From: an uncultured Actinomycetes bacterium
Lineage (GTDB): Bacteria > Actinomycetota > Coriobacteriia > Coriobacteriales > Atopobiaceae
DNA length: 64,000 bases
Direction of reading: 5' to 3'
Assembly: GCA_900314685.1 (NCBI GenBank)
Contig: OMWE01000005.1
Coordinates: 25,315-89,314 of the forward strand
Position 1 is the stretch's first letter. Every line of letters begins with the position of its first letter. The notes beneath the pieces were generated by a model, which did no database searches, was not told where the DNA came from, and was given only the letters and a program-made list of their open reading frames with translations. The position numbers and the translations under genes are program-made. This document shows positions 3,112 through 61,647 of this stretch, in pieces.

Positions 3112-3878
3112 CGGGCGTCAGGCCTCCTGCGGTACTTGTGCGCCCCAAAGGCGGCGTACTTACCTATGGCACGGACGCTCTGGCTCCAAGGGAGGCCCAG
3201 ATAGTCCCTCAGCACGCGCCATCTGCCCAGGGCGCTTCCAAGCTTGTTGGATGCTCGCGAGCCTGAAACCTGTCGGTAGCAGGCCAGGACTTCAGCTGTC
3301 CCGTACGCCGTGCACCCGTCTCTCAGCATGGCGAGCCAAAGGGCCAGGTCCTCGTGCTGCACTCCTGTGGGAAAAGGGCCCTCCGGCAGGGAAGATGCCC
3401 TCAACAGGGCAGTCGAGCAGCTGATAACGCTCTGGGAGAGCATGGAATCGAAGGTAGTTCGTTTCGGCACTAGGAAGTCGGCACACACCGGTATTCCGTC
3501 CTCGCCCACAATCGAGTATGAGCAGTAGACCATGTCGGCATGGGTCCGTTCGGCAAGTTCGACCTGAGTCGCAAGCTTGCCGGGGAGCCAGTAGTCATCG
3601 GCATCGAGAAGAGCCACGTAGCGCCCGTTCGCCAGAGAGATTCCCCGATTGCGCGTGCGTGCCACACCGAGGTTCTCCCTGTTCGAGACCAGCCTTGCGC
3701 GGGGTTCGCCGGCGATGGCCTCGCTCGCCACCTCGCAGGTAGCATCGGCAGAGGAGTCGTCCACGACGATGAGCTCCCAGTCGCCATAGGCCTGAGACAG
3801 GACGGAGACAATAGCCTCCCCGACGAAACGCTCAGCATTGTATGCGGGCATCACTACACTGACCATGGGCGTCTTCAT
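3108..3878 (-). CDS. Glycosyltransferase family 2 (TuaG-like)
   Basis: VSVVMPAYN, VVDDSS, LDADD and HED motifs. Confidence 0.9.
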   Translation of the reverse strand: MKTPMVSVVMPAYNAERFVGEAIVSVLSQAYGDWELIVVDDSSADATCEVASEAIAGEPRARLVSNRENLGVARTRNRGISLANGRYVALLDADDYWLPGKLATQVELAERTHADMVYCSYSIVGEDGIPVCADFLVPKRTTFDSMLSQSVISCSTALLRASSLPEGPFPTGVQHEDLALWLAMLRDGCTAYGTAEVLACYRQVSGSRASNKLGSALGRWRVLRDYLGLPWSQSVRAIGKYAAFGAHKYRRRPDAR

Positions 3879-3879
3879 G

Positions 3880-4602
3880 CTAGCGCGCTCCCCGCGAGGA
3901 GCCGCCGAAGACCACGCCCACGGTCTGGACCATGATCTTGAGGTCCAGGCTGACGCTCGCTCTCTTTATGTAGTCCAGGTCGTACACGATCTTCTTCTCG
4001 GGCAAGAGATCGTAGCCGCCATTGACCTGGGCAAGGCCCGTGATACCCGGGCGCGCCATGAGCCGCTGCTCGAAGCCGTGTATGTACTTGTCGAACTCGC
4101 GGTAGAACACCGCGCGTTCGGGACGCGGGCCCACGATGCTGAGGTCGCCCTTGATGACTCCCCAAAATTGCGGCGTCTCGTCGAAGCGGGATCGCCTGAG
4201 CCTGCGACCGAAAGGCGTCACCCTGGGGTCATCGTTCATGGCCCACTGCGCCCCATCGGCCTCGGCGTCTATCCGCATGGTGCGAAACTTCACCAGCTTG
4301 AACGGTTTGCCATCCTTCCCCAGCCGCTCCTGCACGTAGAAGACCGGCCCCGGAGAGTCCGCCTTGATCCTTATCGCGACAACAACCATGGGGATGAAGA
4401 GCAGTATCAGCGCCACGATACTTGCGACCACATCGAACAGGCGCTTGACTACCAGGTAACTCGTCCGTTTCCTCACTTGCTGGGGGTCGAGACGCTCGAC
4501 CTCGACGATGCGGGAGCGGTCCACCAGGCCGCTGCTCGCCTCGGCAATGAACTCGTCGGAGTCGGGGTTGACCAACTTTGTGCGCTGCGGGGATGCGATC
4601 AT
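3880..4602 (-). CDS. Priming sugar transferase (Bac_transf, CpsE/WcaJ C-terminal type)
   Basis: KRLFD, KFRTM, DETPQFW, SIVGPRPE, PGITGLAQV motifs; start reassigned to ATG 4602 just after the epimerase stop. Confidence 0.9.
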   Translation of the reverse strand: MIASPQRTKLVNPDSDEFIAEASSGLVDRSRIVEVERLDPQQVRKRTSYLVVKRLFDVVASIVALILLFIPMVVVAIRIKADSPGPVFYVQERLGKDGKPFKLVKFRTMRIDAEADGAQWAMNDDPRVTPFGRRLRRSRFDETPQFWGVIKGDLSIVGPRPERAVFYREFDKYIHGFEQRLMARPGITGLAQVNGGYDLLPEKKIVYDLDYIKRASVSLDLKIMVQTVGVVFGGSSRGAR

Positions 4603-31825: not shown

Positions 31826-32195
31826 GGGGGCGACTGGTTTCGACAGGGTGGTTCTGAGATGGGCAGCAGGCCGTGGTCTCCTCGCCACGTAAAACAGGGG
31901 TACCGTCAAATTGAATTGACGACAACGTTTATTCTTTCGAGCCTTCCATGGCTCTCGCCGCTTAATTTAAGCCTGGCGCGTCAATCCGGGGAGTGCTCCC
32001 GGCCCCGGTGCGACGTCATCTAGGGAGACGCTCGTGCGCACGTGACTGGTATGGCGCACGCTAAGACCGAACCAGCTGGGGCGCGCGGTGTTTGTCGCTG
32101 GACATAGCGCGCCCGAGATCGACCAGTGACTGAGCCTGGAGACACCTGTCAGGGGATTGCTTTGGACCGGAGTTCGATTCTCCGCGCCTCCACCA
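31826..32195 (+). ncRNA. ssrA: tmRNA
   Basis: 5' GGGGGCGACTGGTTTCGAC pairs with 3' CGCCTCC-ACCA with the G3-U alanine wobble; T-arm GAGTTCGATTCTC; internal tag ORF. Confidence 0.97.
31918..31965 (+). other. tmRNA tag reading frame (A)DDNVYSFEPSMALAA*
   Basis: Open frame ending in ALAA-stop inside the tmRNA; resume codon inferred. Confidence 0.8.
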
Positions 32196-33639
32196 TAGGA
32201 GAAATACACGAACTAGCCCGTTTCTGGGCTAGTTCGTGTCTATGCTTTGGCGGTGTGAAATCATCGCCGTAGTAATCGAAGGCAAAAAACAGCCTTATAA
32301 CGTCACCGTCGATTTCGGCGGCGCGAATGAACATCTTCAAAATTTCTTGTGGCGTCAGATGTTCCGCCATTTCGTCAAGCCAACGCATTAGATCATCGTA
32401 GCTAGGTTTAGCCGATTCGTTGGCTTTCGCTATTTGGTACTGGGTTTCAAGGTCAGTCTTGCGTTCGCGCAATTCCTCAACCCTTTCTTTGCCACCCGGC
32501 GGCGCTATGCCGTCTTCTATGGCTTGCCAGATTCTTTCAAAGGCGTTGTCTATGCGCCGAATTTCCCCTTTTATCATTTCGCTTTCAAGCGGCGTATCGT
32601 CTTCTTGCGACGCTTCATATTGCGCCATTCCGTAGGCGATGTTTTCTCTAATTTCGGGCTGCTTCACCGCTTGGCAGACCACATCGACAATGGCATCTTC
32701 CAAAATGTCGCGCCTGAAGGTACGCCCGCACTTGTTGCACTTGTAATAGGCGTATGTCTTGCCCGTGGCGCTTGTTCCGCTGGTTCCCGACAACGTGGCA
32801 TCGCAGCAAGCGCACCAAAGCTTGCCGGTCAGCGGCCATTCTTGCGAACTGTCTATACGCCTATGCGGTTTATGGCGGCGCTTCAATATAGATATGATCA
32901 TGTCTTGTTCGGTCTTTGACCAGAGCGCCGGCATTCCGCCTTCAACGACAATGCCCGCATAAGAGTACGTTCCGCCGTTCTGTACCCTACGAAGAAGCTT
33001 GGTAGCCGTGTCTTGGTTCAGCTTCTTGCCATTGCGCGTGCGCATGGCAGAGACGCCGCGCACGACTTCCGCCATTGTTGACCCGCTAAGCAACATGTTC
33101 TTCATCTTGCGCAGCCAATAGGCTTCACGTTCGTTGATTTGGTAATAGCCGTCTACAATGTTCCAACCGTAGAGCGTGCGCCCGTTCGCCATGCACCTTT
33201 CAGCGTTCTTCTTTATGCCGTCCCTGATGCGTTCGCTATCAATGGCGCTTTCGTATTCGGCAAGAACTTCCAACATACCGAGCTGAAGAACGCCGCTGGA
33301 ACCGTCGGCGATTTCCTCACCCGCATAGAGGATTTCAACGCCCGCCTTTCGCAGCATGATACGGGCAAGCGCCATTTCGTCACGGTTGCGCATGATTCTG
33401 GTCACCTTGTATATGACCACATAATCAAACAAGCCCGTGCGGGCATCTGCCATCATGCGTTGAAATTCGGCACGATCAGCGTTGCGCCCGGTCTTGGCAT
33501 AATCCGCATAGGTGCGCACGACTTCAAGCCCGTTTTCCTTGCAATACCGTGTCGAGTTCTCAACTTGGATTTCGATTGATTCCGAGCGCTGGTTGTGCGA
33601 CGAGAAGCGGGCATATATAGCCGCGCGGTTCTTACTCAT
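32149..33639 (-). CDS. Large serine recombinase (resolvase + recombinase + zinc ribbon)
   Basis: IYARFSS nucleophile motif, YADYAKTG, CACC...CNKC zinc ribbon, coiled coil; last 15 codons overlap the tmRNA antisense. Confidence 0.93.
   Translation of the reverse strand: MSKNRAAIYARFSSHNQRSESIEIQVENSTRYCKENGLEVVRTYADYAKTGRNADRAEFQRMMADARTGLFDYVVIYKVTRIMRNRDEMALARIMLRKAGVEILYAGEEIADGSSGVLQLGMLEVLAEYESAIDSERIRDGIKKNAERCMANGRTLYGWNIVDGYYQINEREAYWLRKMKNMLLSGSTMAEVVRGVSAMRTRNGKKLNQDTATKLLRRVQNGGTYSYAGIVVEGGMPALWSKTEQDMIISILKRRHKPHRRIDSSQEWPLTGKLWCACCDATLSGTSGTSATGKTYAYYKCNKCGRTFRRDILEDAIVDVVCQAVKQPEIRENIAYGMAQYEASQEDDTPLESEMIKGEIRRIDNAFERIWQAIEDGIAPPGGKERVEELRERKTDLETQYQIAKANESAKPSYDDLMRWLDEMAEHLTPQEILKMFIRAAEIDGDVIRLFFAFDYYGDDFTPPKHRHELAQKRASSCISPMVEARRIELRSKAIP
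32206..32239 (+). terminator. 14-bp perfect hairpin immediately downstream of tmRNA (inside the recombinase CDS)
   Basis: ACACGAACTAGCCC-gtttct-GGGCTAGTTCGTGT; weak U-tract, so terminator versus att-associated role is uncertain. Confidence 0.6.
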
Positions 33640-50873: not shown

Positions 50874-53621
50874 ATGGCGGTTAGCTACAAGGGTCTTGTT
50901 ATCAAGTTCGGCGGCGACACGACCGAGCTTCAAGGCGCCTTGAAGAAGGTTCAGAAGGCATCGCGCGACACGCAAAGCGACCTGAGAGAGATTACCAAGG
51001 CGCTGAAGTTCAACCCCGGCAACACTGAGCTGCTGGCGCAGAAGGTGAAGACGCTCAACGCGGCTTACCAAGAGACGGAACAAAGGCTTGATGCCTACAA
51101 GCAAGCCTTATCGACGCTAGAGGAAAGGAAGCAGAGCGGCGCAAAGCTCACCGAAGAAGAAGAAAGGCAATACGATTCGCTAAAGCGCTCAATCATCGAG
51201 TGCGAATCACAGCTTGATTCCTACGGCGACAAGATAAAGGCGACAAGCACCGAGCTTGACGCATCGCAAACGAAAATCTACCAGCTTGGGCAATCGCTGA
51301 AGGACAACGCCGACAAGTGGGAAGAGCACGGCAAGCGCGTTGAAACCGTGGGCAATACCATCATGGGCGCAAGCACCGCCGTTGCCGGCGGCGCGATTGC
51401 TGCCTTCAACGAGGTAGACGCCGGCGCTGATACCGTCATTCAGAAGACGGGCGCGACGGGGGAAGCCGCCGAACAGCTCAACCAGTCTTTCGAGAACGTA
51501 GCCAAGCAGTCTTCCGCATCCATGGAAGAGATCGGCACGGCTGTTGGCGAGGTCTCAACGCGGTTCGGTCTTACCGGCGAGCAGCTGGAAGACACATCGC
51601 TTCAGTTCTTGCGCTTCTCCGAGAACACCGGCGTTGACGTGACAACCGCTTGCGAAGACGCGTCAATGGCTATGCAAGCGTTCGGCGTTGACAGCTCACA
51701 AGCCGGCGACGTGCTGGGCATGTTCCAAACCGTTTCACAGCAGACCGGCATAGACGTGCAAACGCTCATGTCGGACGTGAACGCCAATGGCGCGACCTTC
51801 CGAGACATGGGGCTTAGCATTCAGGATTCGGCGGCGCTGCTTGGCAGTTTCGAAGCCGCCGGCATTCCCGCCGACCAGATGTTGACGGGCTTAAAGAAGG
51901 CTTCCGCCAATTGCGCCGCGAGCGGAAAAGACCTAGGCACGACCCTTCAAGACCTTACTAAGCGGCTGCAAGACCCGGCGACGCAGGCGCAAGCTACGCA
52001 GGACGCGATAGACCTTTTCGGGTCTAAGTCAGCAATGGCGTTCGTTGACGCCGCCGAATCGGGGCGCGTGAACCTAGACGCGCTGGGCGGCTCATTGGAT
52101 GACTACGCAACCGCTGTCGATGACACGTTCGAGGGCACGGAAGACGCGCCCGACAAGATGAAAGAAAGCCTTCACGCGCTGCAAATTTCGGGCGCAGAGC
52201 TTGGCGCGGACATTCTGGACACGCTGTTGCCGGCGGTTCAGAAGGCGGCTGAGGTTGCCGACAAACTTAAAGAGGTTTGGGACGGGCTTTCACCTGCGCA
52301 ACAGCAGCTTGCATCAGATGTTGTGCTTGGCGGTATCGCCTTTGGCGGCCTTACAAGCGGCATCGGCAAGGCGATGCAAGCCGCCGACAACATAGGCACA
52401 ACGTTTCAGAACGTGGCAAAGTTCGGCACGACATTAACGGGCGCGGCGGGCAAGGTTAGCGGCGCGTTCAGCGGGCTAACGTCTGTTCTCATGGATAACC
52501 CATGGGCGCTTGTCGTTGCCGGAATAGCCGCCGTTGTCGCCGGTCTAGTGTGGTTCTTCACGCAGACCGAGACCGGCAAGCAAATGTGGGCTGACTTCAC
52601 GGGCTGGATTTCCGAGAAGTGGCAAGCCGTGCAAGATTTCTTTGCCGGCGTGCCGGCTTTCTGGCAAGGCATCTGGGATAGCGTCACGGGTGCCGTGCAA
52701 GGCTTTGTCGATGGCGTGGGCGAGAAGTGGGACGCGCTGGAGCAAGGGGCATCGGACACGTGGACTGCCGTTCAGGACGGCGCTTCTTCCGCGTGGCAGG
52801 GCATCCAAGACACCGTAAGCGGATTGGCGCAAGGTGCCGTCGATGCCGTCTCCACATGGTGGGGAAACCTGACCACCAACACGCAGACGGCGTTTGACGC
52901 AATCGGTCAGACCGTGCAAGGCGACATGTCAACCGCGCAGACCGTCGGAAGTTCAGCGGCGAGCGCCCTTCAAGCCGCCATGAACGGCGATTGGTCAACG
53001 GCGCTGAGCGAAGCGCAGAACGCCTTTGGCGCTATCAGGGACAACGTAAAAGACAAGATGGACGCGGCGCGGCAAGCGGCTATCAACATCGCCGACAACA
53101 TCGGCGCAAAGCTAGGCTTCCCCGGTCTTGGCACCAAGGTTGCGGGCGTCTTTGACGGCGTGAGAAACGCCATTACGAGCAAGATCCAGGACGCTTGGAA
53201 CTTCATCAGCGGCATACCAAGCAAGATCATGAATGCCTTCGGCAGCATTCACATAAGCTTGCCGCACATCAACTTGCCGCACTTCAAGGTAAGCGGGAGT
53301 TTCAACCTAGACCCCGCCAACTTCAGCGTTCCTTCAATCGGCGTTGACTGGTACGCGAAAGGCGGCTATTTCGACAAGCCTTCAATCATCGGCATTGGCG
53401 AGGGCGGCGGCGAGTTCGCCGCGCCTGAAAAGCAGCTTTGGAACTTCATCGAACGCGCCGTCAACAGGGCGTTCGACAACCAAGCAGGGCAGCAGGTCAA
53501 CGTTGCAGTCGAGGTCAACGCAACGGTTGCGGGCAGCATGGACGCATACCAGACCGGGCAGCAAATCGGATTGGGCATCGCAAGCAAGCTAAAGCAAAGG
53601 GGTGTGAGAGTTGCAACGTAG
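50874..53621 (+). CDS. Tape measure protein
   Basis: 915 aa, helical, YKGLVIKFGGDTT N-terminus, W-periodic repeats, WYAKGG tail. Confidence 0.95.
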   Translation: MAVSYKGLVIKFGGDTTELQGALKKVQKASRDTQSDLREITKALKFNPGNTELLAQKVKTLNAAYQETEQRLDAYKQALSTLEERKQSGAKLTEEEERQYDSLKRSIIECESQLDSYGDKIKATSTELDASQTKIYQLGQSLKDNADKWEEHGKRVETVGNTIMGASTAVAGGAIAAFNEVDAGADTVIQKTGATGEAAEQLNQSFENVAKQSSASMEEIGTAVGEVSTRFGLTGEQLEDTSLQFLRFSENTGVDVTTACEDASMAMQAFGVDSSQAGDVLGMFQTVSQQTGIDVQTLMSDVNANGATFRDMGLSIQDSAALLGSFEAAGIPADQMLTGLKKASANCAASGKDLGTTLQDLTKRLQDPATQAQATQDAIDLFGSKSAMAFVDAAESGRVNLDALGGSLDDYATAVDDTFEGTEDAPDKMKESLHALQISGAELGADILDTLLPAVQKAAEVADKLKEVWDGLSPAQQQLASDVVLGGIAFGGLTSGIGKAMQAADNIGTTFQNVAKFGTTLTGAAGKVSGAFSGLTSVLMDNPWALVVAGIAAVVAGLVWFFTQTETGKQMWADFTGWISEKWQAVQDFFAGVPAFWQGIWDSVTGAVQGFVDGVGEKWDALEQGASDTWTAVQDGASSAWQGIQDTVSGLAQGAVDAVSTWWGNLTTNTQTAFDAIGQTVQGDMSTAQTVGSSAASALQAAMNGDWSTALSEAQNAFGAIRDNVKDKMDAARQAAINIADNIGAKLGFPGLGTKVAGVFDGVRNAITSKIQDAWNFISGIPSKIMNAFGSIHISLPHINLPHFKVSGSFNLDPANFSVPSIGVDWYAKGGYFDKPSIIGIGEGGGEFAAPEKQLWNFIERAVNRAFDNQAGQQVNVAVEVNATVAGSMDAYQTGQQIGLGIASKLKQRGVRVAT

Positions 53622-54348
53622 ACAGCAGAGGGCACAGACCGACCGCCTGAAGTTCAACGGAAACGACCTAAGCGCCCTTGTGTCGTGCAAGGTGAACCGT
53701 CCGATAATGCCGCCCGTTAATGCAAAGTTCGAGAGCGTCAGCGGGCGAGACGGCGAGCTTTTCAAGAGCGCATATTTCGACGGCTACGACTTGCCCGTTG
53801 ACATTTGGCTTAGGAGCGATGACAGAAGGGACGCGGCAACGGTTCGGCACGCGTTGGCACAGATGCTTTACACGACTGAACCCGCACCGCTTTACCTTCC
53901 TGATGACCCGACCCGCTACCTTCTCGCAATCGTCACCGGCGACACAGACCTTGGCGAAATCACGGACAGCAGCCCTTCAACGACAATCAAGTTCCATGTC
54001 GGCGACCCGTTCTATTACGGTCAGAAGCGGCGCGCCGATGCTTCAGCGGGCACGTTCACGATAAACGCGGGCGGAGACATACCAACGCACTTGCGCATCA
54101 CGGCAAAGCCCGCGTCTAGCGCCGCTTGGTACATCCAAAACGTAGACACGGGCGAGCAAGTCAAGCTTTCATCTAGCGTGACGAGTTCAAGCACCGTGCG
54201 CGTCGATATGGCGCAAGAGCACGCGACCGTCAACAACAGCCTTGCAGCCGTCACCCTCGATTCTGACTTCTTCACCGTCGAGGGGCGCACGAAGTTGCGG
54301 CTTAGCAGCGGCACGGCTGTACTGGAATGGTGGGAACGATGGCTTTAG
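53611..54348 (+). CDS. Distal tail protein (Dit)
   Basis: LKFNG, SVSGRDG, LYLPDDP, DPFYYG; follows TMP. Confidence 0.85.
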   Translation: MQRRQQRAQTDRLKFNGNDLSALVSCKVNRPIMPPVNAKFESVSGRDGELFKSAYFDGYDLPVDIWLRSDDRRDAATVRHALAQMLYTTEPAPLYLPDDPTRYLLAIVTGDTDLGEITDSSPSTTIKFHVGDPFYYGQKRRADASAGTFTINAGGDIPTHLRITAKPASSAAWYIQNVDTGEQVKLSSSVTSSSTVRVDMAQEHATVNNSLAAVTLDSDFFTVEGRTKLRLSSGTAVLEWWERWL

Positions 54349-56855
54349 TTAGGCGAATCGGCTTTACGCGCTTCTCGCGTTTCGGTGCGAACCTTGGGCG
54401 ATTGCACGCCATGGGCGCAACGCATACCGAAGCGCTGGACGGCACGGACGAGCTGAAAATCACATGCAGCGATGACGTGAACAAGGGCGATTACATCGTT
54501 TGGATTGACAACCAAGGCGTGCCGCATGAGCACATCGTTGATGACGTGGATCGCGAGCATGGCGAGGATGGCACGATAGAAACGACCTTCACCGGCGTTA
54601 ACTCCATCGCTGAGCTGTGGGACGATTGGACGGATGACAAGCGCCCGTCTGGTCAAGTTGCCACGGCGCTTCAAAGCGTGCTCAATGGCACGCGCTGGAC
54701 GGTTGGCACGTGCGACGTTACGACTAGCGCAAGCGTGGTTCTCTACCATCAGAGCGCCCGCGAATCCATATCCGACATTCTGGACGCATGGGGCGGCGAG
54801 CTAGAGACAACCATTGCGACCAACGGTTCTGAGGTCACGGGGCGCAGCGTCGGCGTGCGCCGGTTGCGTGGCAACCAGCAAAGTCCAAAGCGCTTCACGT
54901 GGACGAAAGACATTAAGACGATCAAGCGCAAGGTTTCGAGCGACAACCCCAAAACGCGCGTCTACGGTTACGGCAAGGGAGTTGAGACCGAAAGCGGCGG
55001 ATATGGACGGCGCTTGACGTTCGCTAGCATCAACGGGGGCAAGTCCTATGTCGAGGATGCGGCGGCAACGAGGATATGGGGGCATCCCGGCGCTGACGGG
55101 GCAATACTGCCGGCTTGCACAAGCTACGTTAACGAGCAATGCGAGGATGCCGCGCAACTGCTTGCAGAAAGTAATGCGTACCTTGCGGAGGTTTCGGAAC
55201 CCAAAGTCAGCTATGAAGCCAGCGTCATAGACCTTTACGCGTTCGGGCGCGAGTGGGAGGGCGTAGGCATCGGCGACCGCGTTGCTATCATCGACAAGGG
55301 CTTCAGCGAATCGGGTGTGCGCCTTGCTGGGCGCGTGTCTAAGCTTGAACGCGACCTTTTGACCGGCGATGCAGTAGTTACGTTCGGAAACCTGCAAGAC
55401 AGCATGGCGGACATGTGGCAATCGGTGAGCCAGACGCTAAGGACGCACAGCCGCACGGCGGCGACCTATGACGCCGTTGCCAGCGCGTCTTCAGGGTGGC
55501 TAACGAGGCTTCAAGACGCGCTTAACGACCAATTCAACGCCACTGGAACGTACAAGGTAGAGACGTTCGAGCTTGGCACGATCTACAGCAACGTACCGCT
55601 GAACCCGCAAACCGGATTGCCCACAAAGAGCGTTGCCGACATGTGGGCGGTGAACATTTCCGGGCGCGGAATCCGCCTTGCGTCGAGCCTTACCAGTTCC
55701 GGGCAATGGGACTGGCAGACCTTCATAACCGGCGCGAGCGTCACGGCAGACCTTATCAACGCCGGGACGATGAAGGCTGACCGAATCCGCGCCGGACTGC
55801 TGACGGACGAGACTGGCACCAACTATTGGGACCTGACAACGGGTGAATTCAAGCTTGCGACAAATGCCAAAGTTGGAGACGTTGACATGGCGCACACCGT
55901 CTATAGCGCAGACGTAGAATATGGCAACAGTGCGAGCGCCACGGAGAAGCCCACAGAGTGGGCTACAGACGCCCATTGGCAGCAAGGCAAATACCTTTGG
56001 ACGCGTGTAAAGATGCGCCTACTTGACGGGACGTTGATATATTCGGCGGCGCGGCTTGTTTCGAACGGTCAAGGAATCGGCATCGCTTCAGTTGAAGATC
56101 AATACTATCTGAGCACTAGCAAAACGTCACCGTCCGGTGGCTATTGGTACTCGCAGCAACCAACTTGGGTCAAGGGGTGCTCATACTGGACGCGAAGTAA
56201 AATAACGTGGTCTGATGGGTCAACCACGTTCACGAACCCGGTATTGGCATCGGCGCTCACAAGCGGCAACCAGTCAACCAACGACCTTGACGATACGTTG
56301 AACCAACGCGAGGTGTTCAACCGCCTTACCAACAACGGCAAGACGCAAGGCGTCTACCTAAGCAACGGTCTTCTGTACATCAACGCCACGTACATTTCGA
56401 CCGGGATAATAAGCGATAAGCTGGGGCGCAACACTTGGAACCTGAGCACCGGCGCGCTGACAACAAACTACATGACCGCGAACAATATAAACGCCAACGG
56501 CACTATGACTTCTGGGACAACCACAGGTTATATGGCGAAGCTTACAGGCGGTTCAATGCGGTTCTACTACAACGACAACCCGACAATTGAAGTCGTGTCG
56601 ATACCTTCATACACCGGCGGTTCCAAGGGTGGATACATACAGGCTTGCGATGGAGCAACGTATCTTGGCTTGCGAGCACCGCATCTATATACGGCAACGA
56701 ATACGTCATCCGCAGGGACTACCGGTTCGACCGGTGATCATCAATTCACGCTCATAACAAAGATTGATGACTTAGGGGAAGGACGTATCCAATGGTGGAC
56801 TGGAACAAGAAACATCGACTTCATTAACGGCATCTGTACGGTATGCAACTTGTAG
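54339..56855 (+). CDS. Tail-associated (Tal/endopeptidase-like) tail tip protein
   Basis: TRVYGYGKG, IGDRVAIID; C-terminal beta-rich extension; follows Dit. Confidence 0.85.
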   Translation: MALVRRIGFTRFSRFGANLGRLHAMGATHTEALDGTDELKITCSDDVNKGDYIVWIDNQGVPHEHIVDDVDREHGEDGTIETTFTGVNSIAELWDDWTDDKRPSGQVATALQSVLNGTRWTVGTCDVTTSASVVLYHQSARESISDILDAWGGELETTIATNGSEVTGRSVGVRRLRGNQQSPKRFTWTKDIKTIKRKVSSDNPKTRVYGYGKGVETESGGYGRRLTFASINGGKSYVEDAAATRIWGHPGADGAILPACTSYVNEQCEDAAQLLAESNAYLAEVSEPKVSYEASVIDLYAFGREWEGVGIGDRVAIIDKGFSESGVRLAGRVSKLERDLLTGDAVVTFGNLQDSMADMWQSVSQTLRTHSRTAATYDAVASASSGWLTRLQDALNDQFNATGTYKVETFELGTIYSNVPLNPQTGLPTKSVADMWAVNISGRGIRLASSLTSSGQWDWQTFITGASVTADLINAGTMKADRIRAGLLTDETGTNYWDLTTGEFKLATNAKVGDVDMAHTVYSADVEYGNSASATEKPTEWATDAHWQQGKYLWTRVKMRLLDGTLIYSAARLVSNGQGIGIASVEDQYYLSTSKTSPSGGYWYSQQPTWVKGCSYWTRSKITWSDGSTTFTNPVLASALTSGNQSTNDLDDTLNQREVFNRLTNNGKTQGVYLSNGLLYINATYISTGIISDKLGRNTWNLSTGALTTNYMTANNINANGTMTSGTTTGYMAKLTGGSMRFYYNDNPTIEVVSIPSYTGGSKGGYIQACDGATYLGLRAPHLYTATNTSSAGTTGSTGDHQFTLITKIDDLGEGRIQWWTGTRNIDFINGICTVCNL

Positions 56856-56868
56856 GTTTGGAGCACAT

Positions 56869-57276
56869 ATGGCACGCATCATGTATTACATGGCGCACGA
56901 CCCAATTAGCAACACAGAGGGCGTAATCACTGAGTATGACCAAGACACCATTAAAAGCGCTGCTGATAGCGGAATCGTATTCATAGCCGTTGATTCTGAC
57001 GGCGCAAGGTCAATCGTCAGCGCCGAAGAGGTCAAAGAGCCTGAGAGCAAAGACAGCAACTTTGTTATTGTTCAGCCGCAATACGTAGATGACCGCATGA
57101 AGGCGGCAATCAGCGTGTTTGACGCGCTGGGTAGCGCCGTATTCCCATCAGCGGACGCAGAGACGCAGAGCGCAAACGGCGTTCGCAAGGCGGCACGCGC
57201 AATCACGCCAGAAGCGGCGTTCGAAAGCGCCCTTGAAGCGCTCAAAAAGATTGTGTTCGGCGGTGATGACGAGTGA
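56869..57276 (+). CDS. Phage tail-region hypothetical protein
   Basis: RBS GGAG; co-oriented. Confidence 0.65.
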   Translation: MARIMYYMAHDPISNTEGVITEYDQDTIKSAADSGIVFIAVDSDGARSIVSAEEVKEPESKDSNFVIVQPQYVDDRMKAAISVFDALGSAVFPSADAETQSANGVRKAARAITPEAAFESALEALKKIVFGGDDE

Positions 57277-58274
57277 ACACGCAGACGATAGAACTTGACC
57301 TAAACAAATACTGTTTGGGAACAAACCTTGTACGTTTGGGGCAAGGCGACAAGGGCGGAACGACGATCAAGGCGCTAGTCTACGATTCGGGCGCAGAAGC
57401 CGAGCTTTCAGGCTATACGGCTTACCTAGAAGTGCTGTTGCCGAACAAGACGAACTATTACCGTGCAGTTGCTACCGTATCTGGCAATGCCGTGACGATC
57501 ACGGTTGACGAGAGCAAGCTTTGCGGAATCGCAGGATACACCGACGAAGCCTATTTCACGTTCGAGAAGAACGGTACACGCTATTCGACCGAACGTTTCG
57601 CAATCGAGATTCTTAGAAGCGCCACGGCTGGGCAGCAGCCGGCAAAGAGCTATGACGATGCCCTAGAAAGCCTTATCACGCGCGCTAACACAGCGATTGG
57701 CGCGGCAAATTCAGCGGAGAGCGCTGCAAATTCAGCCGCACGCACTGCGAACAACGCCGCTAGTTCAGCCGGAAGCGCCGCAAGCGCGGCAAGTTCGGCG
57801 GCTACGGCGGCAAACAACGCAGCTTCTAGCGCGAACACCGCCAAAGACGGTGCGAACAATGCAGCAAGCGCAGCCAACGGCGCGGCGTCAACCGCGAACA
57901 AGGCGGCACAGAATGCCGACACAGCTACCGCAAAGGCAGACGCCGCCACATCGGCGGCGAACGCATCCGCTTCAAACGCCCGCACCGCCGCATCTTCAGC
58001 CAATGGCGCGGCTGAGGAAGCTACAGCAGCGGCAAGCAACGCGCTTCAGATTGCCAACAGCATTGCGGCATCGGCACCGCCAACAGATAAGACGGTTGCA
58101 GAGCTTCAGGACGCCAACCGCGTTCTTGCTACGGCGCTTGCCGACGCACAGGACAAATACATTGTGCTTGGGTCAACGGCTTATATGCCCACAAGCCGCA
58201 ATTCCGGGCTTACCGGCGAAACGATCACCGTTGCGAAAGCAATCGCGAGCACGGATATAGCAACGCTCAACTAG
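57273..58274 (+). CDS. BppU-like upper baseplate protein with Ala/Asn/Ser heptad stalk
   Basis: RLGQGDKG...LEVLLP...AYFTF N-terminal domain, then AANSA/ANNAA repeats. Confidence 0.75.
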   Translation: MNTQTIELDLNKYCLGTNLVRLGQGDKGGTTIKALVYDSGAEAELSGYTAYLEVLLPNKTNYYRAVATVSGNAVTITVDESKLCGIAGYTDEAYFTFEKNGTRYSTERFAIEILRSATAGQQPAKSYDDALESLITRANTAIGAANSAESAANSAARTANNAASSAGSAASAASSAATAANNAASSANTAKDGANNAASAANGAASTANKAAQNADTATAKADAATSAANASASNARTAASSANGAAEEATAAASNALQIANSIAASAPPTDKTVAELQDANRVLATALADAQDKYIVLGSTAYMPTSRNSGLTGETITVAKAIASTDIATLN

Positions 58275-58284
58275 AGGGGGAACC

Positions 58285-59187
58285 ATGGCAGACATTGCAA
58301 AGCTTTCAATCAATGGAACCGCTTACGACCTGAAGGACAATTCAGCACGCAACACAGCAAATGCGGCTGTGTCAGAAGCGAACTACAACAGGCAGCAGAG
58401 CGGAAACGTTTATGCCGGACGTTCGATTGCTGCAACCTTCCAAGGAGAGATTGGAAGCACGGGCATCTATAAGTGGCTGCAAAGCCGCGTGAGAAACGCG
58501 AACTTTGAGGGGTTGCGCATCGGCGACTACATCGACGTGCCTATTACCGAGGGCGCGAACGTGCCCGCGCAGACGGTGCGCTATATGATCGGCGCAATCG
58601 ACCAGTATTATCAGTGCGGAGACCAAGCAACGGGGCATCACGTTATCATGGTTCCGCGTGCGCCCGTGTCCGTTAAGGGCGACAAGGCTTCCAACGGAAG
58701 CTATCTGCAATGGCGCGAGACGAACGACAACAATGGAACCGCCGACGAAAAGCACCCATACTTGGTTTCAAAGCTGCACGATTGGGAGATTAACGACTTC
58801 TTGCAAGCGCTTCCCGCCGACCTGCAAGCCGTGCTGATGACCCGACGGGCGCTTCTGGAAGAGCGCTATTCTTCAACGACAAAGCTTAGCGAATCTGGCA
58901 GTTGGTCTTGGGCTGAGCTTGGCAAGGTTTGGTCACCTTCTGAGATGGAGGTATACGGCTGCGTCATATGGGGCACGAAGGGCTATTCCGTCGGCTTTGA
59001 CTCACAGTTCCCCATCTTCAGCGACACGGCACACCGAATCATGGGAACGCGCATCACTTGGTGGCTCCGTTCCGTCTCCGGCGTTTCGTCCGTCAACGCG
59101 TGCTTTGTCAACAACAGCGGCGCTGCCAGCTACAGCGTGCCGTCGGGCGACTGGATACGCCCGCGCCCGTGCTTCCTGATAGGCTAA
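58285..59187 (+). CDS. DGR target protein (DUF6273/CLec-like putative receptor-binding protein)
   Basis: SPSEMEVYG, QFPIF, WWLRS...RPCF C-terminus; contains VR. Confidence 0.88.
   Translation: MADIAKLSINGTAYDLKDNSARNTANAAVSEANYNRQQSGNVYAGRSIAATFQGEIGSTGIYKWLQSRVRNANFEGLRIGDYIDVPITEGANVPAQTVRYMIGAIDQYYQCGDQATGHHVIMVPRAPVSVKGDKASNGSYLQWRETNDNNGTADEKHPYLVSKLHDWEINDFLQALPADLQAVLMTRRALLEERYSSTTKLSESGSWSWAELGKVWSPSEMEVYGCVIWGTKGYSVGFDSQFPIFSDTAHRIMGTRITWWLRSVSGVSSVNACFVNNSGAASYSVPSGDWIRPRPCFLIG
59048..59177 (+). repeat. DGR variable repeat (VR) including GC element and IMH
   Basis: Aligns to 59686-59815 at offset 638 with 11 mismatches, all opposite TR adenines. Confidence 0.97.
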
Positions 59188-59209
59188 AAGCCGTGCTAAT
59201 CGCTTCAGC

Positions 59210-59232
59210 AGCGCCCGCCTTGTGCGGGCGCT
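59210..59232 (+). other. DGR post-VR hairpin/cruciform
   Basis: AGCGCCCGC-cttgt-GCGGGCGCT, 9-bp stem about 22 bp after the target stop. Confidence 0.8.
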
Positions 59233-59252
59233 TTCACTAAGAAGGGCTTCCA

Positions 59253-59660
59253 TTGAGTACCGTATTAGCGCGTTATCGCAGCATCAGCAACTATGAGTAC
59301 TTCAACACGGCGCTACGGATTCGCAGGGACGTGACGGCGCTTGTAACGTCGTCGGCAATGCCGAAATCGTACCGCTTCATTCTCGCGGTTCCCATGGCAC
59401 AGGCGGCGCGTGAGATCGTGGGCGACATTGTGACGGCTAGCGCGTTCTACCCAAACGACGAGTACAACGTATCGCAGCGAAGGCACTATCTGACGCTTGC
59501 CGTTGCCGCTTGCGAGCTGCTTTTGCAGGACGTGCAATGCCTTGCAGACCTTGGCGTTGTGAAGGTCAGCAGGTGCGAGCGCTTGGCGGATGACATTGAG
59601 AAGGAAGTGAAGCTAATAAAGGGCGCTCGAAAGGGTGTGAAGCTGATTGGTTCGAGGTAA
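59253..59660 (+). CDS. avd: Accessory variability determinant (Avd-like four-helix bundle)
   Basis: 135 aa helical protein between VR and TR; PKSYRFIL and RRHYL...A motifs. Confidence 0.85.
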   Translation: MSTVLARYRSISNYEYFNTALRIRRDVTALVTSSAMPKSYRFILAVPMAQAAREIVGDIVTASAFYPNDEYNVSQRRHYLTLAVAACELLLQDVQCLADLGVVKVSRCERLADDIEKEVKLIKGARKGVKLIGSR

Positions 59661-59685
59661 AATATTCATGCGTTGCGTCTTGTTT

Positions 59686-59815
59686 CGCGCATCAATTGGT
59701 GGCTCCGTTCCGTCTCCGGCGTTTCGTCCGTCAACGCGTGCTATGTCAACAACAACGGCAATGCCAACAACAACGTGCCGTCGAACGACTGGATACGCCC
59801 GCGCCCGTGATTCCT
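59686..59815 (+). repeat. DGR template repeat (TR)
   Basis: 26 adenines, 10 AAY codons in VR frame; intergenic between avd and RT. Confidence 0.97.
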
Positions 59816-60020
59816 TTGCATTGCCAGTCATTGCGGATACGTCCGCAATCCGAGCGCACAAGGAAGGAAGACGCAACGTTCGGCGCTTGCGCCGTAAATA
59901 TGCGCCCCGTGGGCACCGCAGACCGCTTCTTGCATGGCGCAGGTTCCGGCGTTCGCCTACGTTTCATTGCTGGTGCCTAAGCGGCTATGGAATGCCGACT
60001 AGAAGCCGTGCGGGGTGCCT

Positions 60021-61130
60021 ATGAAATCAGAAGAACGGCGGGCGGCTAGACGCGCCCGCCGCGATGCGACGAGAGCTGCAAACCGGGCGAAGCGTCTTGA
60101 ATCATGCACTATGGATCAGGTCATGGACGTTGACCGGCTTTATAAGTGCGCCCACGCTTGCAGCAGCGGCGTTGGCTGGAAGTCAGCCGTTCAACGATAC
60201 ATGGCGCGGTGCGTTACCAACGTTCGCAGGGCACGGTCTGACGTGCTTTCAGGAAAGGACATTAGGCGCGGTTTCGTTGAGTTCGACATATGCGAGCGCG
60301 GGAAGCTGCGCCATATCACGTCGGTTCACTTTTCCGAGCGCGTAATACACAAGGCATTGGCTAGGTATGCGCTTGCACCCGCCATATGGTCTACGCTGAC
60401 AGCCGGTTGTTCCGCGAACATCAAGGGACGTGGCACGGAATACGCGCTAAAGCGGCTCAAACAGCAGCTTGCAAAGCACTATCAGAAGCACGGCAAAGAA
60501 GGTTACGTGCTTCTGGTGGACTTCTCGAACTACTTTGGGAACATCGACCATGACGCGTGCAAGCGCCTTGTCGATAGGTGCCTTGACGATCCGCGCGTGA
60601 AAGAACTTGTCTACGCTCAAATTGATTCCCACGGCTCACGTGGTCTTGGGCTTGGCAGCGAACCGAACCAAGTTTTGGCAGTAGCGTTGCCAAGCCCTAT
60701 TGATCACATGCTATTGCGCACGCCTTGCGTTCTGGCAAGCGGGCGTTACATGGATGACCTTTATTGCATCGCGCTTCACAAGTCAGACCTTCACGCCGTC
60801 ATGGCTGACATTCGGCGAGAGTGCGCAAAGCTTGGAATCATCGTCAACGAGAAGAAAACCCGCATAGTCAAGCTATCGCGCGGCTTTACCTATCTGAAGA
60901 AGAGGTTTGAATATGGCGAAACTGGCAAAGTCATTGTTCGCCCTTGCCGCGCCGCCGTGACACGCGAGCGGCGAAAGCTGAAGAAGCTTGCCGTCTTTGT
61001 CGAGCGTGGGGAGATGACGCGAAAACAGGCCATGCAGAGCTATCAATCTTGGCGCGGTTTGATGCTGAAACTAGACGCGCACAGGACGGTTAAGAGCATG
61101 GACGCGTTGTTTTCGCAACTTTTCGGCTGA
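60021..61130 (+). CDS. DGR reverse transcriptase
   Basis: ERGKLRHI, FSERVIHK, VDFSNYFGNIDH, LGLGSEPNQ, RYMDD, GFTYL; adjacent to TR. Confidence 0.96.
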   Translation: MKSEERRAARRARRDATRAANRAKRLESCTMDQVMDVDRLYKCAHACSSGVGWKSAVQRYMARCVTNVRRARSDVLSGKDIRRGFVEFDICERGKLRHITSVHFSERVIHKALARYALAPAIWSTLTAGCSANIKGRGTEYALKRLKQQLAKHYQKHGKEGYVLLVDFSNYFGNIDHDACKRLVDRCLDDPRVKELVYAQIDSHGSRGLGLGSEPNQVLAVALPSPIDHMLLRTPCVLASGRYMDDLYCIALHKSDLHAVMADIRRECAKLGIIVNEKKTRIVKLSRGFTYLKKRFEYGETGKVIVRPCRAAVTRERRKLKKLAVFVERGEMTRKQAMQSYQSWRGLMLKLDAHRTVKSMDALFSQLFG

Positions 61131-61200
61131 CCGCAAACGCAAACCAACCAAAAGCCACAAGACCGCACACGCTGGCTTTCTTATTGCGAAAGGGGCAAAA

Positions 61201-61647
61201 ATGTCATTTACAGAAGAGGAAGAGGCGGCATTGCGCGGCATCCTCGCAATCTACCGGACGAAAGCGCCCGCGCTTTCCGATGACTTGGCAGAGATCGCGC
61301 CAGCCATCTATCCGGCTTGGACGGGAGATGCGCATGCATACGCACAGGGAGAGCGCGTTTACTACGCAGGGACGCTTTACGTCTGCCTTCAGGCGCACAC
61401 TTCACAGGCTGATTGGTCACCTACGGCGGCGGTGAGCCTTTGGGCTAAGACGCTTGCCGCCGGAAACGCAGACACGCCGGCGGGCGATGTTCCCGAATGG
61501 GTTCAGCCCGATTCAACGAACCCTTACGCGCAAGGCGCACGCGTAAGACACGGCGGGAAGGTCTGGGAGTCAATCGTTGCTAACAACGTTTGGGAACCGG
61601 GCGCGACCGGAACAGAAGCGCTTTGGCGCGAAGTTACAGAAGGCTAG
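61201..61647 (+). CDS. Protein with two CBM5/12 (ChtBD3-like) carbohydrate-binding modules
   Basis: AW..YAQGERVYY.G.LY.C.QAHTS..W.P and PEW..YAQGARVRHGGKVWES..NVWEPG. Confidence 0.8.
   Translation: MSFTEEEEAALRGILAIYRTKAPALSDDLAEIAPAIYPAWTGDAHAYAQGERVYYAGTLYVCLQAHTSQADWSPTAAVSLWAKTLAAGNADTPAGDVPEWVQPDSTNPYAQGARVRHGGKVWESIVANNVWEPGATGTEALWREVTEG

Follow-up and report, generated by a model that had tools for sequence, protein, structure and literature searches.

A BPP-1-like diversity-generating retroelement that very probably diversifies a baseplate-attached DUF6273 protein in an Atopobiaceae prophage

In an uncultured Atopobiaceae (Coriobacteriia) gut bacterium, a siphovirus-type prophage carries at the end of its tail module what is very probably an intact, phage-encoded diversity-generating retroelement (DGR) with the architecture of that of Bordetella phage BPP-1, diversifying the tip of a baseplate-attached binding protein. 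The element lies in the 64,000-nucleotide stretch of contig OMWE01000005.1 (assembly GCA_900314685.1) analyzed here, which we call the window and whose positions are used throughout. Its parts follow one another on the plus strand: the DUF6273 target gene with its variable repeat (VR), a GC-rich hairpin, avd, the template repeat (TR), a spacer RNA and the reverse transcriptase (RT; Table 1). An original prediction, made from the sequence alone, had proposed this BPP-1-like order and had regarded all open reading frames (ORFs) as intact. Both proposals held, as each part was located and the reading frames of the target, the small ORF between VR and TR and the RT are all open.

A repeat finder returned a single 130-nt direct repeat in the window, with 92% identity and 638-nt spacing, and this repeat is the VR/TR pair. 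Compared base by base, the two copies mismatch at 11 of 130 positions and the TR base is A at every one of them (P = 2.7e-9, given 26 A in 130 TR nt), as had been claimed. At these positions the VR has six G, three C and two T, and the codon changes are AAT>ACT, TAT>TTT, AAC>AGC (three times), AAT>GCT, AAC>TAC, AAC>GGC and TGA>TGC. The original prediction listed all of these as mutagenic, and ten of the eleven mismatches stand. TGA>TGC (59172 C versus 59810 A) is instead a fixed difference between the initiation of mutagenic homing site of the VR (IMH) and its TR counterpart (IMH*), because it does not vary in 11 of 11 related loci, in which the TR has GTGATTCCT and the VR has GTGCTTCCT at the 3′ end. 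The true mutagenic differences therefore number 10, with 10 of 10 at A (P = 1.3e-8).

The 3′ ends of both repeats fit the published definition of IMH and IMH* (Wu et al. 2018). A GC-rich 14-mer, CGCCCGCGCCCGTG, is followed in all 11 loci by the fixed C (VR) or A (TR); in the window TR, the 14-mer, A 59810 and TTCCT make up the IMH*-like end. The IMH-like end is unvarying in all VRs of the related loci, and VR and TR diverge 5 nt past the C/A marker. The adenine-mutable part of the VR, about 59053 to 59157, encodes residues 255 to 298 of the 300-residue target, in agreement with the earlier placement of the VR in the last ~44 residues of a DUF6273 protein. Read in the VR frame, the TR contains ten AAY (Y, C or T) codons and five other A-containing codons, which gives a theoretical repertoire of about 1.8e14 peptides with no stop codon, the fixed TGA position being left out.

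Downstream of the IMH, past the stop codon of the target and before the small ORF, lies a GC-rich hairpin (59210-59232) whose stem is kept in 10 related loci, with loop and flanks varying. GC-rich inverted repeats downstream of the IMH occur in about 34% of DGRs and are not universal; by analogy, this one would be the counterpart of the BPP-1 cruciform/hairpin. It may additionally be a terminator. Intrinsic-terminator prediction made no call at this hairpin because its T-run is poor. As VR and TR are direct repeats at 638-nt spacing (59048-59686), recombination of one with the other would leave a VR-TR fusion and no avd.

Activity of the element was judged from natural copies of the cassette, using a DNA alignment of 2,846 nt that comprised six near-identical copies from different metagenomes. 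The six are about 100% identical over this length apart from a few variable columns, and these were distributed very unevenly: 27 of 130 columns in the VR, 5 of 130 in the TR and 5 of 2,586 elsewhere (Fisher P 2e-32 for the VR). Nineteen of the 27 variable VR columns fall at invariant TR adenines, five track a TR polymorphism and three are at non-A bases, so that natural VR variants, when sorted by TR base, are concentrated at TR adenines (19 of 22 VR-only columns; Fisher 2e-16). Cassettes that are otherwise identical carry 4 VR alleles at the DNA level and at least 6 at the peptide level. Within the 90% cluster of the target, likewise, residues 1 to about 240 are identical save one Q/K site, with at least 6 VR peptides. 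One copy, L017, has a TR identical to that of the window and a VR that differs at many adenine-templated sites. Since the VR varies on cassettes that are otherwise identical, its turnover is faster than ordinary point mutation, and the 19 of 22 VR-only changes at invariant TR adenines therefore indicate recent activity of the element in this phage lineage. These comparisons point to recent mutagenic retrohoming at the level of the phage lineage, which is not proof for this particular lysogen; at that level they bear out the signature of adenine-specific mutagenic retrohoming that had been read from the single VR/TR pair.

Eleven more distantly related cassettes (79-84% RT identity), including those of Adlercreutzia muris DSM 29508 and an Eggerthellaceae metagenome-assembled genome (MAG), had 10 to 16 VR/TR mismatches at TR adenines and 0 to 2 elsewhere, L004 excepted. 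Mismatches were exclusively at TR adenines in 8 of the 11, two had 1 or 2 non-adenine changes, and L004 had nine, all within a rearranged VR 5′ end. Four of these cassettes (L004, L005, L011 and L012) have nearly the same TR and different VRs.

Three of the related VRs contain internal tandem duplications of TR-derived sequence, with copies that differ from each other: 18 nt in frame in L004:3036-3170 (SVMGGC-SVMGGS), 25 nt in L012:3011-3170, which frameshifts the target C-terminus, and 33 nt plus a TAG stop in L005:898-1065, where the protein ends at 288 aa. The adenine sites of the duplicated copies were accounted for in L012. These duplications look like template jumping or mis-registered retrohoming; alternatively, they may be assembly artefacts in a hypervariable repeat. 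Insertions and deletions in VRs are already known (Wu et al. 2018).

The RT matches Pfam RVT_1 (E 1.1e-11) and phrog_1423 (E 4e-62). ATG 60021 is its likelier start because gene callers chose it on identical copies and the RT of Roseburia phage Shimadzu aligns from there. Against the PDB, 8ub7_A was the only match below 1e-3 (47.8 bits, E 1e-11). This chain is BPP-1 Brt, its printed fragment being 100% identical to BPP-1 brt; group II intron and retron RTs ranked at 19 bits or less (E 0.005 or worse). The nearest phage RTs all come from DGR phages, namely Shimadzu (45.6%), Pioen, Roos and Taranis (about 31%) and nd12. By PDB score ranking and nearest phage RTs, on which the placement rests, the enzyme groups with DGR RTs and not with group II intron or retron RTs. 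An Rfam scan found RT-2 only and no intron or retron RNA. DGR RTs carry the signature motifs [I/L/V]GxxxSQ and YxDD. In the window, as in L002 and L013, the first of these reads LGSEPNQ (60651-60671, residues about 213-219), with N for S; the corresponding motif is LGSETSQ in Shimadzu, LGVEPSQ in Pioen and IGSLTSQ in BPP-1. Because the NQ clade still shows adenine-specific VR differences, the Ser of SQ is evidently not required.

The small ORF between VR and TR is a candidate Avd, as judged from its PHROG family, its homology to the Shimadzu protein, its position, its size and its basic charge. It matched phrog_3206, "Avd protein of DGR" (E 1.3e-8), and its BLASTP alignment with the protein annotated as Avd in Shimadzu spans the full length (E 2e-9). 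Its N-terminus is kept among 63 homologues.

The target matches Pfam DUF6273 above the gathering score (E 6.5e-9). We identified 621 close homologues, mostly of 300 aa and, where named, from Collinsella, Olsenella and Adlercreutzia, and matches to 1,035 representative clusters in which the domain sits at or near the C-terminus of proteins of up to 1,837 aa. The target gene directly follows a gene (57273-58274) whose product contains BppU_N (Pfam E 4.5e-6, 26.9 bits versus a cut-off of 23.1) and also matches PHROG tail and minor-tail families, so the earlier statement that the target comes right after a baseplate gene was correct. Two homologues of the target, P0062 and P0079, are fusions of BppU_N with DUF6273, and the target is 37% identical to the annotated tail fibre of Shimadzu (E 5e-50). 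Because of this synteny (Dit, Tal and the BppU-like gene), the fusions and the identity to the Shimadzu tail fibre, we consider the target to be a tail protein, and by gene order and homology it is most likely a receptor-binding protein (RBP) hanging on the BppU-like baseplate protein. In lactococcal baseplates, BppU carries the RBP, and by analogy the DUF6273 protein would hold the place of that RBP. DUF6273 is an already described DGR target domain, and the targets of other phages have been interpreted as RBPs (PMC10743442, PMC11792537).

The fold of the target was examined with two AlphaFold2 models. The first, from a shallow alignment (55% identity or more), had a predicted local distance difference test score (pLDDT) of 72.7, with the VR below 50, and no match in the PDB. 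The second (mfbdd21ea0ed9), from a deeper alignment, reached a pLDDT of 93.8 and a predicted TM score of 0.89. Its sole PDB match with Foldseek was 9qa6, an immunoglobulin A (IgA) peptidase of Thomasclavelia ramosa (E 1.2e-6, query TM score 0.42), a match to the entry as a whole. The 9qa6 protein has a 290-residue N-terminal domain described with a C-type lectin-like core, and its match suggests that a DUF6273-like domain may stand at the front of a gut bacterial IgA protease. Against the viral models of BFVD, the second model had 27 significant matches, mostly to gut-phage DUF6273 proteins, some of which carry the names receptor-binding protein or tail-collar fibre protein. When the target was searched against the PDB by sequence and by profile, Mtd did not appear and the only matches, to cytochrome oxidase, were due to chance. 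On these models, a C-type lectin fold of the target is plausible, not settled.

The spacer between TR and RT is filled by an RNA that matches the Rfam model RT-2 over its entire length (model positions 1-222 of 222; 87.2 bits versus a gathering score of 40, E 3e-20). RNAs of this family also occupy the spacers between TR and RT in Shimadzu (145 bits), Pioen (175 bits), L002, L009 and L013 (compare L022:2682-2905, L023:2700-2920 and L009:184-406); the BPP-1 spacer matches RF03022, Phage_DGR, and not RT-2. In the description of these motifs, only RT-10 was tied to DGRs, and a DGR role of other RT motifs was speculation (Weinberg et al. 2017). A consensus fold of ten related cassettes revealed a 12-bp helix that brackets the TR, one arm just upstream of it and the other in the spacer. 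Across 9 distinct sequences this bracket helix shows 100% pairing, and 4 of its pairs have compensatory changes, compared with 46-61% pairing in slid controls. At the corresponding two positions, Shimadzu carries complementary 12-nt segments of unrelated sequence, GGGTTATTTGCT and AGCAAATAACCC, and Pioen has an 8-bp pairing that was read by eye and is weak on its own. An 11-nt inverted repeat in Pioen (2392 with 2756) was rejected as the bracket helix, its 5′ arm lying 156 nt upstream of the TR; it may be chance. No bracket helix was found in L009, whose contig possibly ends near the TR.

By covariation and position, the bracket helix is the counterpart of the BPP-1 avd:Sp "cPRT Stop" duplex, which has been seen by cryo-electron microscopy and predicted in 207 other DGRs (10.1101/2023.10.23.563531). 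The stretch that the RT-2 model leaves unpaired has its partner outside the model, 5′ of the TR. On the 5′ side of the spacer arm, and separated from it by GG, lies AAGGAA (59860-59865), which is complementary to TTCCTT at the TR 3′ end (59811-59816); this duplex is supported by TTCCAC:GTGGAA in Shimadzu, with one compensatory change. A CUUG-loop hairpin and UAAAU follow the bracket helix, and they mirror the stem-loop and A-minor adenosines of BPP-1. RT-2, hitherto an orphan motif associated with RTs, could represent the DGR RNA of a large clade of gut-phage DGRs with Firmicutes and Coriobacteriia hosts. If so, the whole BPP-1 cis-priming architecture, that is, primer duplex, GG linker, TR-bracketing stop duplex, tetraloop hairpin and the UAAAU A-minor candidate, is reproduced with unrelated sequence. 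The 3′ strand of the RT-2 closing helix (about 60010-60018) covers the Shine-Dalgarno-like GGGGTG of the RT, which hints that translation of the RT could be controlled by RNA folding over its ribosome-binding site.

The following mechanism would be consistent with these elements. A transcript would span the stretch that starts 5′ of the TR and includes the spacer. This RNA folds, as covariation shows, such that the bracket helix (59670-59681 with 59868-59879) encloses the TR, and the one compensatory change against Shimadzu supports pairing of the TR 3′ end with AAGGAA. By analogy with BPP-1, a complex of RT and Avd would then cis-prime cDNA from a spacer nucleotide near this duplex, about A59865, with copying beginning about G59809 or A59810 and ending at the bracket helix. 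Such a start would place 59810/59172 and TTCCT outside the mutagenized tract, and such an end would explain why VR/TR homology stops at 59048/59686. Adenines, as the substitution pattern suggests, would be misread during copying. The cDNA would replace VR 59053-59157; the GC-rich IMH would direct this step and the GC hairpin downstream would assist it, so that the ten AAY and five other A-containing codons in the last ~44 residues of the DUF6273 protein would be rewritten. Gene position, fusions and tail-fibre homology suggest that the altered RBP would let the phage change or recover host adsorption.

The TR itself is polymorphic. Two TR alleles occur on otherwise identical cassettes and differ at 5 sites (59733, 59782, 59788, 59793 and 59795; 4 A/G and 1 C/T), with the other allele in L014-L016 and L018. 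This is more variation than in the flanks (5 in 130 nt versus 5 in 2,586 nt, P 5e-5), and it is enriched at adenines (4 or more of 5, P 0.006), which are A in the window and G in the other allele. The G allele is derived and the window TR ancestral, because the nearest outgroup TR (L007) shares the state of the window. This suggests that TR adenines are occasionally lost, through self-homing, VR-to-TR conversion or selection that freezes positions; erosion could stem from rare self-homing of mutagenized cDNA or from VR-to-TR conversion. If true, DGR templates would have a built-in ageing process. Taken jointly, the proposals that RT-2 is the DGR RNA of a large gut-phage DGR clade and that the TR is slowly eroded at adenines are tentative and on balance doubtful.

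One copy, L018 (VR 3264-3398, TR 3902-4036), has the derived TR allele together with a VR 3′ half identical to that of the window, and its VR therefore mismatches its own TR at 4 non-adenine sites. In L018:1-2500, holin and lysin genes precede the target in place of the BppU-like gene. L018 could be a recombinant phage or a chimera of metagenome assembly, or its TR could have changed since the VR was last rewritten.

A number of observations weigh against reading the cassette as an intact, active DGR of BPP-1 type. Of the 22 columns that vary in the VR only, three have a TR base other than adenine (two C>T changes and one T>G), the VR of L018 could not have been templated by its own TR at 4 sites, and the activity evidence comes from comparisons between natural copies, hence at lineage level. 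In the RT, N replaces the S of the "SQ" that is usual in DGR RTs. The avd candidate scored below the cut-off of the NCBIfam Avd model (E 0.066, 13.5 bits versus 80) and had no similarity to BPP-1 Avd by BLASTP, hhalign or PDB profile search. In the Foldseek search of the PDB, the second target model had no match to Mtd or TvpA. The hairpin lies 38 nt past C 59172 and 33 nt past the end of homology at 59177, whereas that of BPP-1 is nearer. Could the cassette then be no DGR at all, and the repeats an ordinary duplication diverging by point mutation or recombination beside an unrelated retron, group II intron or defence RT? The best NCBIfam name for the RT is indeed a group II intron RT/maturase (E 6e-15), with weak Drt and retron matches, but these are far below their cut-offs (TIGR04416, 55 versus 300 bits; retron St85, 23 versus 235), and among solved structures BPP-1 Brt leads by 28 bits. 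The adenine asymmetry moreover recurs in 11 independent loci, and an AAY-rich TR, IMH/IMH*, Avd and a DGR-type RNA are all present. We give this explanation a negligible probability and reject it on the adenine-only VR/TR differences, the natural VR variants and the RT ranking.

Two further explanations accept the DGR and question its present role. The cassette could be a fossil of past diversification, silent or defective in this lysogen and with a frozen VR, which we regard as very unlikely. It would fit with activity evidence at lineage level only, with the occurrence of the window's exact target protein on 63 contigs, so that one VR allele is widespread and stable, and with decay in relatives, where VR duplications frameshift or truncate the target. 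A scan of 58100-61300 for sigma-70-like promoters found none, though it is uninformative for a high-GC actinobacterial host. Yet the cassette retains intact ORFs throughout, together with YMDD, the adenines of the TR, the IMH, the hairpin and the RNA helices, and outside VR and TR it is identical to copies with other VR alleles. We also consider it unlikely that the target of a genuine DGR does not bind host receptors and serves instead as a decoration or accessory lectin (for mucus glycans or other cells) or as a protein of the lysogen. The protein is small and without a fibre shaft, the fold search gave only an IgA protease with a lectin-like domain, a secreted protein, and DUF6273 occurs in very diverse architectures of up to 1,837 aa; carbohydrate binding could instead fall to the CBM5/12 protein, whose gene directly follows that of the RT. 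These points are set against the location of the gene between the BppU-like baseplate gene and the DGR and lysis genes, the natural BppU_N+DUF6273 fusions, the 37% identity to the annotated Shimadzu tail fibre, the BFVD relatives named RBP or tail-collar fibre and the published RBP interpretation of other DUF6273 targets.

The 2.35-Mb host genome (64.7% G+C) has one TR, one VR and one RT; no second VR or RT was found elsewhere in it. SecY from the window is 93% identical to that of an Olegusella MAG and 79% to those of Olsenella and Parafannyhessea, and the host is therefore a member of the Atopobiaceae, class Coriobacteriia, the class that had been predicted. The RT was sought in 40 related genomes and none (0 of 40) carried it, so the element is sporadic. 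A search of the cassette DNA against a phage collection gave no match. Upstream of the cassette, the gene order is that of a prophage, from the serine recombinase to Tal (Table 1). Within the BppU-like protein, a long Ala/Ser/Asn-rich stretch of degenerate 21-nt (7-aa) repeats (57692-58012) is probably a length-variable coiled stalk, because the repeat number differs among relatives (10-11 copies in L004 and L011). The gene after the RT encodes a 148-aa protein with two CBM5/12 carbohydrate-binding modules and is kept in all five cassette copies that reach beyond the RT (L014-L018); its product may be a tail accessory or a lysis helper.

Table 1. Features of the DGR cassette and its prophage surroundings, in window coordinates
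Feature	Position	Strand	Remarks
Serine recombinase	32149-33639	-	Prophage gene order
Large terminase	43296		Prophage gene order
Portal	45017		Prophage gene order
Major capsid protein	46926		Prophage gene order
Tape measure	50874		Prophage gene order
Dit	53611-54348		Precedes Tal and BppU_N gene
Tal	54327-56855		Upstream of BppU_N gene
BppU-like baseplate upper protein gene	57273-58274	+	Directly 5′ of target; BppU_N and Ala/Ser/Asn-rich repeats
DGR target gene	58285-59187	+	300 aa; Pfam DUF6273; C-terminal VR
VR	59048-59177	+	130-nt repeat shared with TR
IMH-like VR 3′ end	59158-59177	+	GC-rich 14-mer CGCCCGCGCCCGTG, fixed C 59172, then TTCCT
GC-rich inverted repeat	59210-59232	+	9-bp stem, loop CTTGT; from sequence and minimum free energy fold
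avd candidate	59253-59660	+	135 aa; TTG start; isoelectric point 9.4
Bracket helix, 5′ arm	59670-59681	+	Just upstream of TR; pairs with 59868-59879
TR	59686-59815	+	26 A; 10 AAY codons in VR frame; IMH*-like 3′ end
RT-2 spacer RNA (Rfam RF03077)	59829-60038	+	cmscan; overlaps RT start
Bracket helix, 3′ arm	59868-59879	+	In spacer
CUUG-loop hairpin	59881-59894	+	5 bp; after bracket helix
UAAAU	59895-59899	+	A-minor candidate
DGR RT	60015-61130	+	Likely start ATG 60021, 369 aa; RVT_1; YMDD
CBM5/12 protein	61201-61647		Directly after RT, before holin/lysin genes
Lysis genes	Downstream of CBM5/12 gene		C39-like peptidase, GH25-LysM

Since Coriobacteriia prophage DGRs and DUF6273 DGR targets have already been published, the cassette is a well-formed example of a described kind, and general knowledge of DGRs is unchanged by it. 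What the locus adds is a cleanly documented intact DGR prophage for the Atopobiaceae and the Coriobacteriia gut bacteria. The RNA elements of BPP-1 cis-priming can be mapped onto a different RNA family (RT-2), which makes the locus a convenient second model for the generality of the BPP-1 mechanism. Host-range prediction from the tail gene would be unstable, a point relevant to typing and isolating phages of hard-to-grow gut anaerobes.

The original prediction had called DGRs of this host group little characterized, which was overstated. Eggerthella lenta prophage DGRs (ert-mtd-avd; clades 3, 4, 7 and 10) were published in 2022, and VR substitutions were observed in E. lenta DSM2243phi4 after chemostat growth (PMC8778435). 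Compared by their published description, these elements share with ours the Coriobacteriia host and the succession of target, avd between VR and TR, and RT, whereas their host family is Eggerthellaceae and ours Atopobiaceae. Adlercreutzia and Eggerthellaceae loci were also the closest relatives found, with 79-80% RT identity.

Among gut Firmicutes, DGR phages with DUF6273 targets include Shimadzu, the Faecalibacterium phages Pioen, Roos and Taranis, and nd4 and nd12. As in the window, the VR is at the C-terminus of DUF6273, but the hosts belong to another phylum and the targets are longer, with fibre or Ig domains at the N-terminus. The order of tail fibre, Avd, TR and RT recurs in Shimadzu, with homologous DUF6273 target and Avd, and this phage shares with Pioen and the window the RT-2 spacer RNA and the TR-bracketing helix. 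The Coriobacteriia-phage clade differs from Shimadzu and Pioen in its NQ variant of the RT motif, those two having SQ.

The prototype BPP-1 DGR (mtd-avd-TR-brt) resembles the cassette in gene order and strand, in placing the VR at the C-terminus of a tail protein whose gene closes the tail module ahead of the lysis genes, and in its adenine-only VR/TR differences and AAY codons, with repeats of 134 nt versus 130 nt here. In both, a GC-rich 14-mer begins the IMH, fixed IMH/IMH* differences lie nearby and a GC hairpin follows the IMH; in both RNAs, a duplex of the TR 3′ end with the spacer stands beside a duplex of upstream and spacer sequence, after which come a short hairpin with a tetraloop and then adenosines. 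The two elements differ in that the BPP-1 target is Mtd, to which the DUF6273 protein has no match by sequence or fold, that its Avd belongs to another sequence family than the avd candidate, and that its hairpin is adjacent to the stop codon, compared with 22 nt after it here. The BPP-1 spacer is of the Phage_DGR/RT-10 family and 144 nt long, in contrast to RT-2 and 199 nt, and its RT motif is SQ and not NQ; the host here is Gram-positive and of high G+C content. Brt is only 24% identical to the RT of the window, yet it is the best solved relative.

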